Positions 1 through 20,511 of a stretch of DNA of 21,258 bases are shown piece by piece. The position numbers and the translations under genes were made by a program. The number at the start of each line of letters is the position of its first letter. Within the stretch, counting starts at the first letter, position 1. Source of the stretch: a virus (Duplodnaviria; Heunggongvirae; Uroviricota; Caudoviricetes); the IMG/VR virus record IMGVR_UViG_2778261303_000012, positions 1 through 21,258 of that record; one strand, given 5' to 3'. Under the pieces are notes generated by a model, which made no database searches, was not told the origin of the DNA, and worked only from the letters and a program-made list of their open reading frames with translations.

Positions 1-333
1 TCAATATGTTTTATCCATTACCACAGTAGTAATAGTACAGGCATCATTACTAATACCAATCTTAACACCATAACCTAAAAGATAGGCTTCATGTAATATC
101 TTATTAATATTATTATCACCAGATCGTGCCCAGTCAGAATTTCCACAATTACTTCCAATATCTATCAAACCATCAAACAAATAATAATATCTGTTATTAT
201 CAGAGTCCTGTGCCCAATCAGCCTTTATTGATTTAACGGTAACTACATTTGTATTAACATCAGCAGCAAACGCATAATCTGACATAGAACTAAAAATAAA
301 AAAAAGACCTACAACGCAATTAAACTTACTCAT
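1..333 (-). CDS. small secreted protein, function unknown
   Basis: 110-aa ORF. N-terminus MSKFNCVVGLFFIFSSMSDYAFA is a typical Sec signal peptide with an AxA cleavage site; mature part has two Cys. AT-rich like the neighbouring island genes. No family recognised. Confidence 0.5.
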   Translation of the reverse strand: MSKFNCVVGLFFIFSSMSDYAFAADVNTNVVTVKSIKADWAQDSDNNRYYYLFDGLIDIGSNCGNSDWARSGDNNINKILHEAYLLGYGVKIGISNDACTITTVVMDKTY

Positions 334-609
334 ACAGTAACCTCATTTTTAAAATATAAATTTAATAGTTGATATCTTATTTTATATAATTAACCACTCA
401 CCCCACATAAAACGCCACATTAACATGCCATCCTTTAAAATATTATTTCAACGTACTCTGATCATGTTAATCTCAAAATTAGCAGCATTCTTAGTATTAA
501 GTATAACGAATTTATCACTCCCACTTTTATATGATGTTGACAAAACCAGATGATCATCATAGCGAGCAAGAACATAGTACCAGACATTCTCATAGTGGAG
601 CATCTGATA

Positions 610-1167
610 TTAATTTTTAAACTGGGGCTTATACCAACCAGCAATAAGTGAAAATACCCTGAAATAGATCATAAATCCTGACATCATACACTCAATCAAG
701 TGATGACGAATAAAAGATACCTCAGAAAAACATTTGACTAAAATAAGTCTTCTTCCTGACCTGACAAAAAGCGTCATTATTAATGCAGTAATAACGCATA
801 AAACCAGTACATCTAGCGCAACATGCCGATGAATTACAGAAAACTCCAGAGCAGGAAAAAGCAAAAGCAGCAATATAGACAGAAAAAGTCTGATAAAACT
901 CAGATCCTGCACATTATTTCTTTGTTTGATCCACAAGAAGAAAACAACACCAGTTCCCCATCCAATCAGGAATATAACAATGACTGTAACAGCATAAAAA
1001 AGGCTTCTGGCCACATCATCTACGCCAGCCCCAACAACCCACCATGGGAAACCATAGTAAAAGGAAGTTCCCAAGCCATAGAAGTAAGCACTTCCCCACT
1101 CAAGACAGCCCATATAAGCAACAAAAAGTGAATAGTTTCTGAGCAGAGCACTGTCATTCATAGCCAA
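610..1167 (-). CDS. polytopic inner-membrane protein, function unknown (start codon uncertain)
   Basis: 185-aa ORF with several long hydrophobic segments (e.g. VTVIVIFLIGWGTGVVFFLWI, LFLSILLLLLFPALEF, LVLCVITALIMTLFV). Same strand and AT-rich composition as the 1..333 ORF. No family recognised. Confidence 0.45.
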   Translation of the reverse strand: MAMNDSALLRNYSLFVAYMGCLEWGSAYFYGLGTSFYYGFPWWVVGAGVDDVARSLFYAVTVIVIFLIGWGTGVVFFLWIKQRNNVQDLSFIRLFLSILLLLLFPALEFSVIHRHVALDVLVLCVITALIMTLFVRSGRRLILVKCFSEVSFIRHHLIECMMSGFMIYFRVFSLIAGWYKPQFKN

Positions 1168-1319
1168 TCCTCTAACAATTCAATAACATTTACTTGTTTT
1201 ACATAACAAATAAAATTCTATGTAGTCAAGAGACTTCATGCCAAGAGAAACTCATTGCACAATCGCCATCAAATTCAATGTTCTGTATCGTTTTCGAGCG
1301 TAAAAACCCGCCTATTGGC

Positions 1320-2867: not shown

Positions 2868-3617
2868 ATGCTCATTCCAACATCTCTATCAAAACAACCA
2901 GTAATCGAAGCTGCTTTCGAAATGCGTTTTTCTAAAGAAACACAAATATCGGAAATAGTTCCAGGGTTTCTTTTTCACGCTCTAGGTTGTACAAAACCAG
3001 TAATTAGTTTACCACCCAGTCAAATACCTAAAAATGTTCGTGAGGGAGATGAACAATTACATTACGCAGTTGTCAGTCGCCTCGAAATCGAAGGGTACTA
3101 TATTGGACTAAGTGACCATGGTGTTGTTGTATCCACCAGCACCAAATATCAAGGGTGGAGTCATTTTAGAGAAAAAATCATTCATGTATTAAATGAGCTT
3201 AACAAATTAAATTTAAATGACAACATCATCCGCTACTCATTAAAGTATGTAGATTTTTTCCCAAAAGAAGACGATTCTAATTTATTTGATAAGCTAAACG
3301 TCAGCTTAAATATGGCTGGCGAGTCTATGTCTAATTATCCGATCAATATCAGAATCGATAAAAATGAAGGCGCATTTCTAAATATAATTCAAATATTATC
3401 TCATGCTTTAGTCATGTCAGATAATGGAGAATTTAATAAAAAAGGACTAATCCTAGACATAGACAGTATTAGGCAAATCACTAATACTGATGAAATAGAT
3501 AAGTTTAAAAACGAACCCAAAAAAATTCTTGATGATCTTCACTCCTGTAATAAATTAGCTTTCTTTAGTTGCCTTAAAGAGTCAACAATTCAAGAACTAG
3601 AACCATCCTACAAATAG
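2868..3617 (+). CDS. hypothetical protein, cassette gene A (249 aa)
   Basis: Long ORF, first gene of a three-gene AT-rich operon. No catalytic motif recognised. An unverified recollection of TIGR04255-like proteins is too weak to use as a call. RBS is weak and an alternative downstream start is possible. Confidence 0.6.
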   Translation: MLIPTSLSKQPVIEAAFEMRFSKETQISEIVPGFLFHALGCTKPVISLPPSQIPKNVREGDEQLHYAVVSRLEIEGYYIGLSDHGVVVSTSTKYQGWSHFREKIIHVLNELNKLNLNDNIIRYSLKYVDFFPKEDDSNLFDKLNVSLNMAGESMSNYPINIRIDKNEGAFLNIIQILSHALVMSDNGEFNKKGLILDIDSIRQITNTDEIDKFKNEPKKILDDLHSCNKLAFFSCLKESTIQELEPSYK

Positions 3618-3632
3618 AAATGGTGGTATGAT

Positions 3633-3977
3633 ATGTATCCGTCTCATCATGTTTATCGAGCTCAACTTCAAGTATTAACTTTGGTTTTATATGGTCTGCA
3701 TATAACAGCATTAACAGACATTGCCCAAAATCAACAGCATGGTCCTCAACAAAGTTTAATCGTCAAAAATCACGCTTTGGAGTATAAGTCTTCAACTACC
3801 GATTCAGTTCATTCCATCACACAAACATATAAAGCAGGGAGCACAATCTCAGTTGATCAAAGACTTGCAGTCTCGATGACAAACTTTTATGAAAAATTAT
3901 CAACAAACCAGGTGTCTTTAGGCAGTGAAATAAATAAAGTCGTTCATGCTTCACTGTGGGATTTATACTTGGATTAA
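3633..3977 (+). CDS. hypothetical protein, cassette gene B (114 aa)
   Basis: ORF 15 nt after gene A stop, same strand and AT-rich composition; a GGTGG-like Shine-Dalgarno precedes the ATG. No family recognised. Confidence 0.5.
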   Translation: MYPSHHVYRAQLQVLTLVLYGLHITALTDIAQNQQHGPQQSLIVKNHALEYKSSTTDSVHSITQTYKAGSTISVDQRLAVSMTNFYEKLSTNQVSLGSEINKVVHASLWDLYLD

Positions 3978-3980
3978 GTG

Positions 3981-4595
3981 ATGAGTAATAACATTTTTGA
4001 TATCGAGAAATTCAAAGATCAAATTCCATATTATTTAACAGCTCCTCAAAAAGAAGGGCTAATAAATGCACTTAGAGATTTCCCTGAAAACACTAACTAC
4101 TACCTTACCAATTATCATGATGATCTGAAAAATGCTGCACTTCAGGGAGATATATTTAAGGAGCTTACAGTATATTCAATTAAAGGGACTAAAAAAACAC
4201 GAGGAATTATATTAAGCAACAGTTGCGATATAGATACAAGTAATAATCGTGATGTGCCAATGCGTGCAGTCTTTGCTCCGTTAGTAAGTTTATCTAAGTT
4301 CGAAGCTATTCTTCTCTCCAACGGAGTTTCTAAGACTTCAATAGATAGCAAAATTGATGCTATAAGGAAGCAGTTAATTACTAATATTTTTTATCTTCCT
4401 GAATCAGACAACTTAGAAGAATGCATCGTTTTTCTTGATGATGTATACCAATTACCAACGGAAGAATTACAAAAACTCTTGAATGATAAATGCAAAGCCA
4501 TAACTTTAAGTCAAGTTGGTTTCTACATTTTACTATTCAAAATATCTATTCACTTTTGTAGATTCCATGAAAACATACAACGATTCGATCATTAA
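3981..4595 (+). CDS. hypothetical protein, cassette gene C (204 aa)
   Basis: ATG at 3981 directly follows gene B stop (TAA 3975..3977; a GTG at 3978 is an alternative start), suggesting translational coupling. Followed immediately by a terminator hairpin. No family recognised. Confidence 0.55.
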   Translation: MSNNIFDIEKFKDQIPYYLTAPQKEGLINALRDFPENTNYYLTNYHDDLKNAALQGDIFKELTVYSIKGTKKTRGIILSNSCDIDTSNNRDVPMRAVFAPLVSLSKFEAILLSNGVSKTSIDSKIDAIRKQLITNIFYLPESDNLEECIVFLDDVYQLPTEELQKLLNDKCKAITLSQVGFYILLFKISIHFCRFHENIQRFDH

Positions 4596-17781: not shown

Positions 17782-18353
17782 TGAACAACTTAATGATCGA
17801 CCTTGAGACGATGGGGAAAAATAAGGATGCACCGATCGTTTCCATTGGCGCGGTGTTCTTCACTCCAGAAACCGGAGACATCGGACAAGAATTCTATGCG
17901 GTTGTCAGCCTAGACAGTGCTATGAAGCAAGGAGCTACACCTGACGGCGATACCATCCTGTGGTGGTTGAAACAAAGCCCTGAAGCGCGAGCTGCAATCT
18001 GTATTGATGATACTTTGTCGATCAGCGATGCTCTCTCAGAACTAAACCATTTCATTAACCGGCACGCAGACAATACGAAATATTTAAAAGTCTGGGGTAA
18101 CGGGGCCACCTTCGACAACGTAATTTTACGTGGAGCTTACGAGCGAGCAGGACAAATCTGCCCGTGGGCGTACTGGAATGACCACGATGTACGCACGATC
18201 GTTACGCTTGGGCGTTCCATCGGATTCGACCCCAAAATGGACATGCCTTTCGATGGCGAACGGCACAACGCCCTGGCTGATGCCCGTCATCAGGCAAAAT
18301 ATGTTTCCGCTATCTGGCAGAAATTAATTCCTGCCACCAGCACAGAATTATGA
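17781..18353 (+). CDS. DEDDh-type 3'-5' exonuclease
   Basis: ATG 17781 with GGAGG RBS, 190 aa. Exo I motif MIDLETMG (D-x-E), later acidic residues, and H-x4-D motif in HNALADARHQA. Confidence 0.75.
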   Translation: MNNLMIDLETMGKNKDAPIVSIGAVFFTPETGDIGQEFYAVVSLDSAMKQGATPDGDTILWWLKQSPEARAAICIDDTLSISDALSELNHFINRHADNTKYLKVWGNGATFDNVILRGAYERAGQICPWAYWNDHDVRTIVTLGRSIGFDPKMDMPFDGERHNALADARHQAKYVSAIWQKLIPATSTEL

Positions 18354-18389
18354 TTTTCCCGGGTGCAGCCGGTTTTGATGGAGAAAATT

Positions 18390-18662
18390 ATGAACACCTT
18401 GTTTTTACTGATGGCTGAATTCAATACCCCTAACATTGAACTCTCAGCAGTTAGCCAAAAGTACTTTGGCATGAGTCCAGCCACGGCAGAAGCAAAAGCA
18501 AACGCTTGTAAGTTGCCCGTTCCAACATATCGCATCGGCACATCACAAAAAGCAAAACGTTGCATCAATATTCAGGATCTTGCGGAATACATAGACAAAA
18601 GACGAGAAGAAGGACGAGCTGAGTGGGAAAAGGTCAGAACGGATAAACAAAAATATAACTAA
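18390..18662 (+). CDS. excisionase-like / PrtN-family small DNA-binding protein
   Basis: ATG 18390 with GGAG RBS (alternative ATG at 18378), 90 aa. KYFGMSPATAEAKANACKLPVPTYRIGTSQKAKRCINIQDLAEYIDKRREEG resembles PrtN/excisionase-like proteins (recollection). Last gene of the early-left operon. Confidence 0.55.
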   Translation: MNTLFLLMAEFNTPNIELSAVSQKYFGMSPATAEAKANACKLPVPTYRIGTSQKAKRCINIQDLAEYIDKRREEGRAEWEKVRTDKQKYN

Positions 18663-18675
18663 ACTAAGACCATGA

Positions 18676-18704
18676 ATAACCCGTGTATATACGGGTTATT
18701 TTTC
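18676..18704 (+). terminator. rho-independent terminator after the excisionase-like gene
   Basis: AACCCGT-gtatat-ACGGGTT hairpin followed by ATTTTTC; overlaps the stop codon of the convergent membrane-protein gene. Confidence 0.55.
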
Positions 18705-19244
18705 TTTATCGCCATCTTTTCTAGATTTGAACAATCCACTAACAACGAAGCCAACCAAACCAACAATACTAATTGTACTTGTTCCCAGTAATGCAACGAT
18801 TGCTTCAACTGGCGGCTTTCCTTCATGAGCAATAAGAAATGATACAAACATTCCGGCTACAAATAAGCACCAACACGACATAAACCAAACCGTGAATGAG
18901 GCCATTTTTGTCCGAAGCTCATTGTCTATTTCTTTACCAGTTGCGTCAGCTATCTTATCCCGTACTTGTGACTTGAGCATATCAAGCTGAGCTTGAAGAC
19001 TGTCCATTCTGTTCTGCTGCATAAACTCATGCAATGCACCAGTATTAGAACCAAACTCTTCTGCCTCCAGAATAGCCTTATTTTCTGAAGAAGAATCATC
19101 ATCGCGCTCATGATTAGACGGCTCAAATGCGGATTCAAAAGCCTGCTCTTGGCTGTCAGTAGAGTTTAAGGATGCTTCAGAGCGACCATTTTCAACACCT
19201 GCGGCCGCTCCGATCAGTTTATAGATATCTGAATTATGAGACAT
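18696..19244 (-). CDS. membrane protein with acidic N-terminal region, coiled coil and C-terminal two-TM hairpin (candidate toxin/effector)
   Basis: 182 aa. N-terminal about 60 residues acidic and low complexity, predicted coiled coil (LQAQLDMLKSQVRDKIADATGKEIDNELRTK), then two hydrophobic helices (FTVWFMSCWCLFVAGMFVSFLIA; AIVALLGTSTISIVGLVGFVVSGLF) and a basic tail. Starts 22 nt after the Panacea-domain gene. Confidence 0.6.
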   Translation of the reverse strand: MSHNSDIYKLIGAAAGVENGRSEASLNSTDSQEQAFESAFEPSNHERDDDSSSENKAILEAEEFGSNTGALHEFMQQNRMDSLQAQLDMLKSQVRDKIADATGKEIDNELRTKMASFTVWFMSCWCLFVAGMFVSFLIAHEGKPPVEAIVALLGTSTISIVGLVGFVVSGLFKSRKDGDKEK

Positions 19245-19266
19245 GTCATCCCTGAATATTACTTTT

Positions 19267-19740
19267 TCAGAGGCCCTGACATTGCTGTCGGTTATTCAAT
19301 AAATCATGATAATAAGCCTTGATCGCATCATTTGAGATGATCGACGAGCCAATACCATTATAAGCTTGTGACCAAGGCGTACCTGGCATATGAGTTAGAG
19401 TTGATAACTCAATTCCATTTTTCGAGCCGTAAAACTTATAAACAGCCCCTATAATGCTCTCTGCTTGCGGATCCATAGTAACGATGCCACCAAAAGGAGC
19501 TACTGCTACATTCGTAACAGGTTTATTCCCATAGTCTTTGAAAGCATCGTACATTCCAGGAATAACTGGACCGTACTTCCACGCGGAGACACATTCATTG
19601 AGCAAAGGCTTACCTGTTAATGCTAAATAGTAACCATGGGCAATATAAGTAAGCTTCTGAAGTTGCATGTGGGTCAGAGGATTATGATGTTGGTTTCCCA
19701 ACGTTATGAATTTATTGGCTATTTGTACCGGACTGTACAT
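19267..19740 (-). CDS. Panacea-domain (DUF4065) protein, PanA/SocA-like antitoxin candidate
   Basis: Start at ATG 19740 with AGGAGG RBS, 157 aa: MYSPVQIANKFI....LTHMQLQKLTYIAHGYYLALTGKPLLNECVSAWKYGPVIPGMYDAFKDYG matches the DUF4065/Panacea signature (...KLQKLLYYAQG..LA..G.PLF.E...AW..GPV.P..Y) as recalled. Confidence 0.7.
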   Translation of the reverse strand: MYSPVQIANKFITLGNQHHNPLTHMQLQKLTYIAHGYYLALTGKPLLNECVSAWKYGPVIPGMYDAFKDYGNKPVTNVAVAPFGGIVTMDPQAESIIGAVYKFYGSKNGIELSTLTHMPGTPWSQAYNGIGSSIISNDAIKAYYHDLLNNRQQCQGL

Positions 19741-20440
19741 AACCACCCTCCTCATTACACTGAATGTGCAAACAGTATCATCACTGTTATCTCAACCTAA
19801 CACGAACAAAAAAGTTTTGGAAGATTGCAAGAGCAATTCACTGTGTTTATAACCAGCAAATGACTGTACATATACACAGGTTACAAATTGGTGGCGAATT
19901 ATACCTGCAGAAGTTGCGATGTCAACAAAGCGACCATCACAGTGTTTTGCATCTCACACTGTTATGACAAAAAATCTTTTGATAGGTTCCCAATAGGCTC
20001 CCACAAAACACATAACCAATTGTTTTTCAAAAACGATACATCCTATCGAGCATTGGTGCAACGCTAAACCGACCACTCCAGTGAACGTCAGTTTTTTCAG
20101 GCATTGCGCTGGTTTGGTTGATTTTTTGCATTTCAGAATTACCGTGCATTTTCAAATGTAGAGATTATTTTATCGATATATCATGGGGTTATGTTATTCA
20201 GCATCACTGTTCAGGAGGCTCAATAACGGGGTACTATACCATAACAACAGGAAGCGCCTGTCTCATTGCAAAAGAAAATTGAGATCCTCTCAAGGCATGA
20301 AGCTCTCACGAAGTGATGGAAATAATCTTATTAGCCGTTAGCTTTGTTAAGGCCAATGATAAACAATCCAGGTTCGACGATAAATAAAAATCACACATTA
20401 AACTCCGGTGATATCTCTCCCTGCTAATAGCACTGATAGA

Positions 20441-20474
20441 GAAAAAAAGAACCCAATAAGCATTGGGTTCTTTT
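20441..20474 (-). terminator. bidirectional rho-independent terminator
   Basis: GAACCCAAT-aagc-ATTGGGTTC hairpin flanked by an A-run upstream and a T-run downstream; sits 40 nt past the stop of the 20512.. gene on the minus strand. Confidence 0.6.
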
Positions 20475-20511
20475 ATGTAATGCCTTCCATACCATCGAAG
20501 AACTTCACATA

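Follow-up and report, generated by a model that had tools for sequence, protein, structure and literature searches.

The PanA–PanT(Esc. col.) toxin–antitoxin pair as cargo beside the att core of a dusA-integrated Stx-type prophage

Results

Organization of the locus

The window analyzed here is a 21,258-nucleotide stretch of a Caudoviricetes genome (IMG/VR record IMGVR_UViG_2778261303_000012, positions 1 to 21,258). Toward one end, it contains a compact two-gene operon together with the following features:

18363..18662, plus strand: PrtN (pyocin activator)/excisionase-like gene, convergent neighbor of the pair (PF11112, 81.8 bits; RefSeq annotation in relatives)
18674..18701, no strand assigned: GC-rich hairpin over the panT stop codon (terminator scan and sequence)
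18696..19244, minus strand: panT, membrane pore-forming toxin, 182 aa (open reading frame; hydropathy and charge; AlphaFold2; identical to WP_000019185.1)
19267..19740, minus strand: panA, Panacea-domain antitoxin, 157 aa (open reading frame; PF13274; identical to WP_000287252.1)
19747..19752, minus strand: Shine-Dalgarno sequence AGGAGG, 6 nt 5′ of the panA ATG (read from the sequence)
19771..19788, no strand assigned: palindrome AACAGT-N6-ACTGTT in the presumed panAT 5′ UTR, a candidate operator
19898..19925, minus strand: sigma-70 promoter TTGACA-16-TATAAT directed toward panA (scan, 12/12 consensus matches)
19939..19962, no strand assigned: another inverted repeat, ACAGTGT-N10-ACACTGT, just 5′ of the -35 hexamer and within a cluster of four ACAGTG hexamers
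20045..20149, minus strand: displaced 5′ stub of host dusA (RefSeq pseudogene at the equivalent position)
20046..20053, no strand assigned: prophage end and att crossover core (TCGAGCAT), inside the dusA 5′ end (homology breakpoints)

The operon runs from panA to panT, with one promoter on its 5′ side and one hairpin on its 3′ side. An initial annotation, made from the sequence alone, had placed the two genes 22 nt apart; the panA stop codon and the panT ATG are separated by exactly this distance, on the same strand. It had also read the AGGAGG ribosome binding site correctly (19752..19747), for which the Enterobacter orthologue has GGAGGG. An alternative in-frame ATG at 19755 would lengthen PanA to 162 aa, but the start at 19740 is preferred because both RefSeq and the ribosome binding site favor it. 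The hairpin is likely to serve as a bidirectional terminator common to panT and the convergent PrtN/excisionase-like gene. This neighbor, recognized as excisionase-like in the initial annotation and confirmed here by its PF11112 match, is context only and lies outside the toxin–antitoxin module.

Identity with a published toxin–antitoxin pair

PanA in the window has no amino acid differences from WP_000287252.1, a RefSeq coding sequence of E. coli STEC1588, and PanT has none from WP_000019185.1 of the same strain. Across seven E. coli and phage loci, PanA is the RefSeq protein with zero differences. These two accessions are PanA(Esc. col.) and PanT(Esc. col.), with mode of action "Membrane" (Kurata et al. 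2022, PNAS 119:e2102212119, PMC8832971, Table 1); the source of the pair is E. coli STEC O31 and the toxin belongs to cluster T3, and the supplement classes the pair as "TA", in the order A|T with 22 nt between the genes (Kurata 2022, PMC8832971). Expressed alone, PanT(Esc. col.) arrests growth and halts transcription, translation, and replication simultaneously; it depolarizes the inner membrane and admits SYTOX Green, which indicates large pores (PMC8832971). Co-expression of PanA(Esc. col.) neutralizes this toxicity (PMC8832971, Table 1, Fig. 2B, Fig. 5). The proposal that a Panacea antitoxin is coupled here to a membrane-depolarizing toxin has thus been demonstrated experimentally for identical sequences. 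Because the proteins are the same, the experiments suggested in the initial annotation, including inducible expression of the toxin alone and with its upstream gene (toxicity, rescue, and depolarization), are already published, with the exception of the phage challenge. A 2025 phage record likewise already carries the labels PanT and PanA for both genes.

The Panacea domain of PanA

The DUF4065/Panacea signature is borne out by a match to PF13274 (SocA_Panacea; E=5.9e-18, 66.3 bits against a gathering cutoff of 25.7) that covers residues 27-123 of PanA and profile positions 1-112 of 113. Pfam yields the Panacea domain only, with no recognizable DNA-binding domain, and the protein is listed as "noNTD" in the published table (Kurata 2022, PMC8832971). 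Among NCBIfam models, the best match is SocA_antitoxin (NF047745; E=1e-27), whose 97 bits fall below the equivalog cutoff of 190. A PDB sequence search with PanA returned nothing significant (best E=0.3), so that no solved Panacea structure is reachable by sequence. PanA shows strict conservation (0 non-synonymous vs. up to 9 synonymous changes).

Topology and predicted structure of PanT

The acidic, disordered N terminus proposed for PanT is evident from a net charge of -11 over residues 1-70 (15 D+E) and from pLDDT values below 50 over residues 16-56. Its two C-terminal hydrophobic helices are equally clear: the Kyte-Doolittle profile exceeds 1.6 only around residues 114-139 and 146-172. In the AlphaFold2 model, which is a monomer of only moderate confidence (mean pLDDT 58), helices are placed at residues 4-16, 54-66, 68-139, and 146-177, with disorder over 17-53. 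The ten-residue blocks that span 111-140 and 151-170 reach pLDDT 75-84, and the loop block 141-150 reaches 67. The coiled coil of the initial annotation fared less well. A simple heptad count finds a short clean a/d stretch of about 2.5 heptads (M80, L83, L87, L90, V94) and the match to SlyX is weak (E=0.13); hence, we retain a long amphipathic helix and drop the term coiled coil for PanT.

A Pfam search of PanT gave no significant family, and in PHROGs the protein is matched over its full length by phrog_13343 (E=5e-112). In the family alignment, the N terminus is hypervariable, a G-x-x-IDN-x-LR motif is invariant, and TM1 and TM2 are conserved. TM2 (ALLGTSTISIVGLVGFVVSGLFKS) is near-invariant and rich in small residues.

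Promoter, leader, and repeated motifs

The sigma-70 promoter is invariant across five E. coli and phage variants, and the Enterobacter orthologue keeps it as TTGACT-16-TATAAT. Transcription is predicted to begin near 19890. The palindrome described initially as ACAGT-N6-ACTGT is present at 19772..19787 as its sole copy within the window. Its assignment to the promoter region needs correcting: the one strong promoter match lies about 110 nt upstream of it, which places it in the presumed 5′ UTR, outside the core promoter. A second promoter over the palindrome was found neither by scan nor by eye. A palindrome with 5-bp arms is, on its own, within chance for a 200-nt region, whereas its conservation in the diverged Enterobacter orthologue is beyond chance: the block ATAACAGTGATnATACTGTTT is kept at the same position in the Enterobacter locus L011, while the surrounding spacer has diverged. 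Autoregulation by PanA through this site is speculative, because PanA carries no recognizable DNA-binding domain.

The hexamer ACAGTG occurs four times in 19740..20050, against 0.16 copies expected from the rest of the window. Given the distance of these motifs from the att core (75-275 bp), we considered whether they might be integrase arm-type sites. This was rejected as the main reading, since the Enterobacter orthologue retains both the motifs and the palindrome with the promoter side facing prophage genes, not the element boundary. The GGTTCCCA/GGCTCCCA repeats, which lie closer to the att core, are better arm-site candidates than ACAGTG.

Setting within the prophage

The boundary of the element was placed from homology breakpoints: similarity to phage 1720a-02, a 99.9% identical Stx phage, stops at 20053, and similarity to the intact dusA of prophage-free genomes begins at 20046. 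RefSeq labels the equivalent position "tRNA-dihydrouridine synthase, missing C-terminus" (pseudogene). This dusA stub is 83% identical to the 5′ end of the phage-borne replacement dusA beside int, and its promoter is directed into the prophage, toward panAT. The pair is situated between the PrtN/excisionase-like gene and the att core; in phage PhiR47_1, it is annotated PanT/PanA.

The initial annotation was half right in having the pair sit where an integrase would be expected. In phage 1720a-02 (total length 47343), the integrase (194..1291) is at the opposite prophage end from panAT (45890..46911), and the two are neighbors only across attP in the circular phage. The attP-proximal slot itself is swappable. 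Sister prophages hold other two-gene sets here, one with a YafO-family toxin, and in RM8082 the slot of a near-identical prophage is filled by other genes instead of panAT. Among complete E. coli genomes, 79/5426 carry the pair.

Relatives in other neighborhoods

A PanA open reading frame lies directly upstream, on the same strand, of the PanT relative in 48/50 IMG/VR loci, the other two being uninformative. All four diverged genome contexts (Enterobacter, Providencia, Pantoea, and a P2-like E. coli element) pair PanA with PanT amid unrelated flanks. Such pairing, characteristic of PanAT systems, is conserved across diverged homologues in otherwise unrelated neighborhoods. Positions occupied by PanT relatives include the P2-like gpA-portal region and the Q-to-holin moron slot.

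Discussion

The locus is almost certainly the PanA-PanT(Esc. col.) type II toxin–antitoxin module, an accessory passenger near att at one end of a lambdoid (Stx-type) prophage integrated in dusA. As a discovery this has little weight: the pair, its toxicity, its neutralization, and its membrane-pore mechanism have been known for these exact sequences since 2022. The proteins, the A-to-T order, and the 22-nt gap are all the same as in Kurata 2022. What is added here is the context. The supplement of that study flags PanAT(Esc. col.) as "NotPhage," whereas this validated E. coli pair is clearly prophage cargo, lying beside att in a dusA-integrated Stx-type phage, in a swappable slot next to attP, with relatives in recognized accessory hotspots of other temperate phages. 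In addition, both the panAT promoter and the palindrome are conserved. These observations extend known biology without being surprising, and they ease the design of a phage-defense test and of a study of regulation.

A mechanism can be outlined by combining the published work with the features above. In the lysogen, panAT is probably transcribed constitutively from its promoter, a perfect match to the sigma-70 consensus, with possible additional read-through from the displaced dusA promoter; the conserved leader palindrome is a candidate control site. PanT would insert into the membrane via its two C-terminal helices, and the near-invariant, small-residue TM2 may pack into an oligomeric pore. 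The Panacea domain of PanA would prevent pore formation by binding the cytosolic N-terminal part of PanT, comprising the disordered acidic region and the helix preceding TM1, a binding mode modeled on the mutationally tested Bartonella PanT:PanA (Ernits 2023). Pull-downs of PanA-PanT complexes have been reported for five other PanAT pairs, and neutralization by PanAs is reported to be independent of ClpXP and Lon (Kurata 2022).

As to biological role, the most likely one, judged from sequence and context, would be abortive infection or superinfection exclusion encoded by the prophage, the alternative being stabilization of the prophage itself; genomic context makes the abortive-infection reading plausible. 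In its fullest form, which we put forward only tentatively, PanAT(Esc. col.) would be a prophage-borne abortive-infection/superinfection-exclusion module, not a generic chromosomal toxin–antitoxin system, that travels between defense hotspots of unrelated temperate phages. The Panacea domain would then be a sensor releasing PanT on infection, and the consensus promoter would be tuned by another factor through the ACAGTG-type candidate operator. These hotspots are the slot next to att in dusA lambdoid/Stx phages, the moron position between Q and the holin gene, and the gpA-portal hotspot of P2. Full-text literature searches turned up no experiments on phage defense by PanAT or DUF4065; phage PhiR47.1 is named in a paper on the SNIPE nuclease, in which PanAT is not discussed. 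A scan of both proteins against PADLOC-DB v2.0.0 gave chance-level matches only (E ≥0.014), so that the pair fits under no catalogued defense system.

Addiction is the classic behavior of type II toxin–antitoxin modules on mobile elements, and panAT might mainly stabilize the prophage, having no part in phage defense: loss of the prophage would end the supply of PanA, and leftover PanT would kill the cell. The position of the pair right beside att at the prophage end is in keeping with this, as are the YafO-family toxin, another gene of toxin–antitoxin type, in the same slot of a sister prophage and the strict conservation of PanA. On the other side, homologous modules sit in P2-like and Q-downstream accessory slots, which are enriched for defense genes. 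The independence of neutralization from ClpXP and Lon says nothing about antitoxin turnover (Kurata 2022). We regard a purely stabilizing function as rather doubtful; addiction and defense are not mutually exclusive roles.

Two further readings concern the workings of the pair. PanT is small, has two TM helices and a charged tail at its C terminus, forms pores, and permeabilizes the inner membrane, all of which gives it a superficial resemblance to a holin. PanT and PanA might accordingly be imagined as a lysis or lysis-timing accessory and its antiholin-like inhibitor, acting in the phage's own lytic cycle. Yet the lysis cassette (S, R, and endopeptidase) is at 23.4-25.6 kb of 1720a-02, ~20 kb from the pair. 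The pair also lies on the other strand from the early-left genes next to it and possesses a consensus sigma-70 promoter of its own. Neither Pfam nor PHROGs gives a holin family match, the pair is dispensable (as its low frequency in E. coli and the differently filled slot in RM8082 indicate), and phages of unrelated types carry the same module alongside holins of their own, which makes this reading highly improbable. The idea that PanA is a SocA-like type VI antitoxin, a proteolytic adaptor handing its toxin to ClpXP instead of blocking it by binding, draws on the shared Panacea domain and on the best NCBIfam match, but that match falls far short of its equivalog cutoff, neutralization by PanA reportedly needs neither ClpXP nor Lon (Kurata 2022), and PanT, as a membrane protein, bears no relation to SocB, which is a soluble toxin. 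We hold this reading, too, to be highly improbable.

A close mechanistic parallel is PanT(D11/T12):PanA of Bartonella choladocola (apis), which likewise combines a single-domain PanA with a toxin that has a charged N terminus and C-terminal TM helices. Like E. coli PanT, the Bartonella toxin depolarizes membranes and forms pores (Kurata 2022; Ernits et al. 2023, PNAS 120:e2305393120). The Bartonella Panacea domain is predicted, with mutational support, to bind its toxin at two places, the disordered N-terminal region and the pre-TM helix (Ernits 2023, PNAS 120:e2305393120). The interface mutations are those of the Bartonella pair, and the interface of the E. coli pair is predicted by analogy; the two toxins belong to different clusters (T12 vs. 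T3), and their homology is uncertain according to the authors (Kurata 2022). RosmerTA, exemplified by RmrTA of Gordonia phage Kita, is also a phage-borne two-gene system with a membrane-depolarizing, pore-forming toxin, and its anti-phage activity has been demonstrated (Ernits 2023, PNAS 120:e2305393120). Its antitoxin, however, is a protease/HTH protein of the ImmA type instead of a Panacea protein, and its toxin is unrelated in sequence. SocAB of Caulobacter crescentus, a type VI system, shares the Panacea/DUF4065 antitoxin with PanAT, but SocA acts as the adaptor that links a soluble toxin to ClpXP, whereas the PanAT toxin is a two-TM membrane protein. RexAB of phage lambda is expressed in the lysogen, has an effector that collapses the membrane potential, and is encoded by genes accessory to the phage life cycle. 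In place of an antitoxin it has a sensor-activator, RexA, and the Rex trigger and exclusion phenotype are known. Though unrelated to RexAB in sequence, PanAT resembles it in its predicted expression in the lysogen and in the collapse of the membrane potential.

The gene pair is a published PanA-PanT toxin-antitoxin system

The pair consists of two adjacent minus-strand genes.

panA and panT in the window
19740 to 19267, minus strand: panA, 157 aa; AGGAGG 6 nt ahead of the ATG
19244 to 18696, minus strand: panT, 182 aa; begins 22 nt past the panA stop

The Panacea/DUF4065 signature that the initial annotation recognized in the 157-aa protein is borne out by a Pfam search, in which PanA matches PF13274 (SocA_Panacea) at 66.3 bits (gathering cutoff 25.7), and both the AGGAGG ribosome binding site and the membrane-protein gene 22 nt downstream are as described there. 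The window DNA shares 99.9% identity with Stx phage 1720a-02 and about 96% with phage PhiR47_1, in whose record the genes are named PanT and PanA; 79 of 5426 complete E. coli genomes have it, as a single chromosomal copy. The window translations show zero differences from the coding sequences of E. coli STEC1588 (RefSeq WP_000287252.1 and WP_000019185.1), and Table 1 of Kurata et al. (2022, PMC8832971) lists these accessions as "PanA(Esc. col.)-PanT(Esc. col.)" with the mode of action "Membrane"; the supplementary table gives the order as A then T, the gap as 22 nt, and the status as "TA". In that work, E. coli PanT is toxic and PanA rescues cells; the toxin halts transcription, translation, and replication at the same time, depolarizes the membrane (DiSC3(5) dye), and lets SYTOX Green enter cells, from which the authors conclude that large pores form. 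Because the window proteins are this pair, the growth and membrane-potential assays suggested with the initial annotation are already published for these exact proteins: the proposed antitoxin and membrane-depolarizing toxin are real, and already known rather than new. In the GenBank record of phage 1720a-02 (KF030445.1), panT is annotated as hypothetical and panA (46461..46934) is unannotated, and the two families in PHROGs v4 (phrog_1281 and phrog_13343) are both of unknown function. Contrary to the "NotPhage" flag in the 2022 supplement (PMC8832971), the E. coli PanAT locus is prophage cargo.

Pairing persists in unrelated surroundings

Enterobacter, Providencia, Pantoea, and a second E. 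coli lineage encode diverged PanT homologs (40-67% identity). In each case a PF13274 gene lies 21-45 nt upstream of the homolog, and the flanks of the four pairs are mutually unrelated. The Enterobacter pair lies at the end of a prophage remnant, the Providencia pair between the Q antiterminator and holin genes (adjoined by type I restriction-modification M and S genes), and the Pantoea and second E. coli lineage pairs in the gpA-to-portal region of P2-like phages. Q-to-holin and gpA-to-portal slots are where temperate phages tend to carry defense cargo. In L017, one of the loci listed here, a DUF4145 protein adjoins the module.

Homologous PanAT modules in P2-like gpA-to-portal or Providencia Q-to-holin slots
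3495..4591: loci L017 and L018
3491..4570: locus L015
3502..4495: locus L013

An IMG/VR scan yielded 50 loci encoding a PanT relative, and in 48 of them the ORF immediately upstream, in the same orientation, matches a PanA profile; of the other two, one begins at a contig edge and one is a match of only 25 residues. The pairing is real and autonomous, and since it holds in 48 of 50 loci and with unrelated flanks, the pair is not always embedded in an unrelated conserved operon.

The pair occupies a swappable slot at the attachment site

The window covers the early-left arm of a lambdoid prophage that has integrated in dusA, together with one of the prophage ends. Similarity to phage 1720a-02 ends at 20053 and intact dusA homology (prophage-free genomes, e.g., K-12) begins at 20046, placing the crossover core, about TCGAGCAT, at 20046..20053. 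Past it lies the displaced 5' stub of dusA, a pseudogene in RefSeq.

Displaced host gene fragment
20027..20155, minus strand: dusA 5' stub, a 42-aa ORF fused to phage sequence; its upstream promoter region reads toward panAT

In the 1720a-02 record, which ends at 47343, the integrase gene spans 194..1291 and the pair 45890..46911, so that the circular order is the PrtN/xis-like gene, panT and panA on the opposite strand, attP, and then int. The pair thus lies between the xis-like gene (PF11112), which adjoins panT as had been noted, and attP. Its description as sitting where an integrase would be expected holds for the circular phage, in which int comes next, although the integrase gene itself is at the other end of the record. 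GGTTCCCA/GGCTCCCA repeats adjoin the att core (19985..20003), and similar GGTTCCC and GGGAACC copies are present beside int at the far end of the prophage (137..175 in 1720a-02); these repeats are probably arm-type sites bound by the integrase.

Between the PrtN/xis-like gene and att, the slot has exchangeable contents (18663..20045 in the window; 18732..19828 in the 98.9% identical RM8082 prophage). RM8082 carries two unrelated small hypothetical genes there (57 and 177 aa), neither with a Pfam or PADLOC match; E. coli O157:H7 strain Z1626 and several other strains carry two hypothetical genes, and one strain a YafO-family toxin with a hypothetical gene. Elsewhere in the window, downstream of the Q antiterminator gene, three co-oriented plus-strand genes (2868..4595; 249, 114, and 205 aa) run opposite to their neighbors; the first is a "TIGR04255 family protein" in RefSeq, and none has a match in Pfam or PADLOC. 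Just past their equivalents, RM8082 has an IS4 transposase and an "enterotoxin A family protein". These genes may be another uncharacterized moron or defense cassette.

A strong promoter match and a conserved motif precede panA

Expression signals upstream of panA
19925..19898, minus strand: sigma-70 promoter, perfect 12-of-12 TTGACA-16-TATAAT, ~158 nt upstream of the panA ATG
19772..19787, extendable to 19771..19788: palindrome, only copy in the window, in the presumed leader

The promoter is the sole strong match in a scan of 18300..20500; by our own arithmetic, the chance expectation of a 12-of-12 match in 2.2 kb is about 1e-3. It would probably drive constitutive panAT expression in lysogens. 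Published PanAT work used heterologous promoters (PMC8832971), so the native one appears unstudied. The terminator scan predicts no terminator between the dusA stub and panA, and read-through from the displaced host promoter into the operon is therefore possible.

The palindrome noted in the initial annotation is present, but in the presumed leader rather than the promoter. It belongs to a set of four ACAGTG hexamers in 19740..20050 (0.16 expected) that form two inverted repeats, one in the leader (19771..19788) and one just upstream of the -35 element (19939..19962). The upstream region is nearly invariant among E. coli variants, whose comparison says little. The Enterobacter ortholog (PanA 75%, PanT 67% identical) retains TTGACT-16-TATAAT, ACAGTG copies, the block ATAACAGTGATnATACTGTTT, and the ribosome binding site, while the sequence between diverges. 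In that ortholog's locus, prophage genes, and not the end of the element, lie on the promoter side; the motif thus accompanies the module, which favors a role in regulation over one in recombination. It is absent from more distant modules, although these too have strong promoters. No DNA-binding domain is recognizable in PanA by Pfam search or in the Kurata 2022 supplement.

Possible roles in the lysogen

Given the swappable accessory slots in several temperate phage types, the likelihood that lysogens express the pair constitutively, and an effector that rapidly collapses the membrane, we favor a prophage-encoded defense or exclusion function over a housekeeping one. The main alternative is prophage stabilization, which does not exclude defense. 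A holin-like lytic role for PanT is unlikely in view of the position, strand, promoter, and dispensability of panAT. We found no phage-defense test of this pair in the literature, and PADLOC lists neither PanA nor PanT. Within the favored defense reading, we tentatively suggest, while considering it somewhat improbable on balance, that the published system is a mobile module by which prophages bring about abortive infection, with the Panacea domain as sensor and a conserved, unstudied operator.

PanT architecture and neutralization by PanA

The Pfam search finds no significant family for PanT. Its predicted acidic, disordered N-terminus is upheld (net charge -11 over residues 1-70; residues 17-53 disordered in AlphaFold2), as is the C-terminal hairpin, formed by the only two hydrophobic segments (~114-139 and ~146-172). 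The AlphaFold2 model, built from 33 homologs, has helices at 4-16 (short), 54-66, 68-139, and 146-177, with a mean pLDDT of 58; confidence is usable only near the membrane hairpin (75-84 flanking the 140-145 loop). Clean heptads are limited to about M80 to V94, so the proposed coiled coil is weakly supported. Across 33 aligned relatives, the acidic N-terminus is hypervariable, G-x-x-IDN-x-LR is invariant, TM1 is conserved at F, M, W, C, F, and V positions, and TM2 (ALLGTSTISIVGLVGFVVSGLFKS) is almost invariant; its richness in small residues is what closely packed helices of an oligomeric pore would be expected to show. Relative to E. coli and phage variant loci (L001, L004, L005, and L008), PanA is unchanged as a protein (up to 9 synonymous and 0 non-synonymous changes); PanT has 1-7 substitutions, clustered in the acidic N-terminus (35, 37, 47, and 61) and TM1 (130, 131, and 134).

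For neutralization of the E. coli toxin, we infer direct PanA-PanT binding; the published pull-downs cover five other PanAT pairs (PMC8832971). A SocA-like adaptor role was rejected as unlikely because PanAs neutralize without ClpXP or Lon (PMC8832971) and PanA scores 97 bits against the SocA equivalog model, well under its cutoff of 190. The Bartonella PanT:PanA pair is the closest mechanistic model for E. coli PanAT. There, the Panacea domain is predicted, with support from mutants, to bind the disordered N-terminus of the toxin and the helix preceding its TM segments (Ernits et al. 2023), and the PanT family alignment fits that picture.
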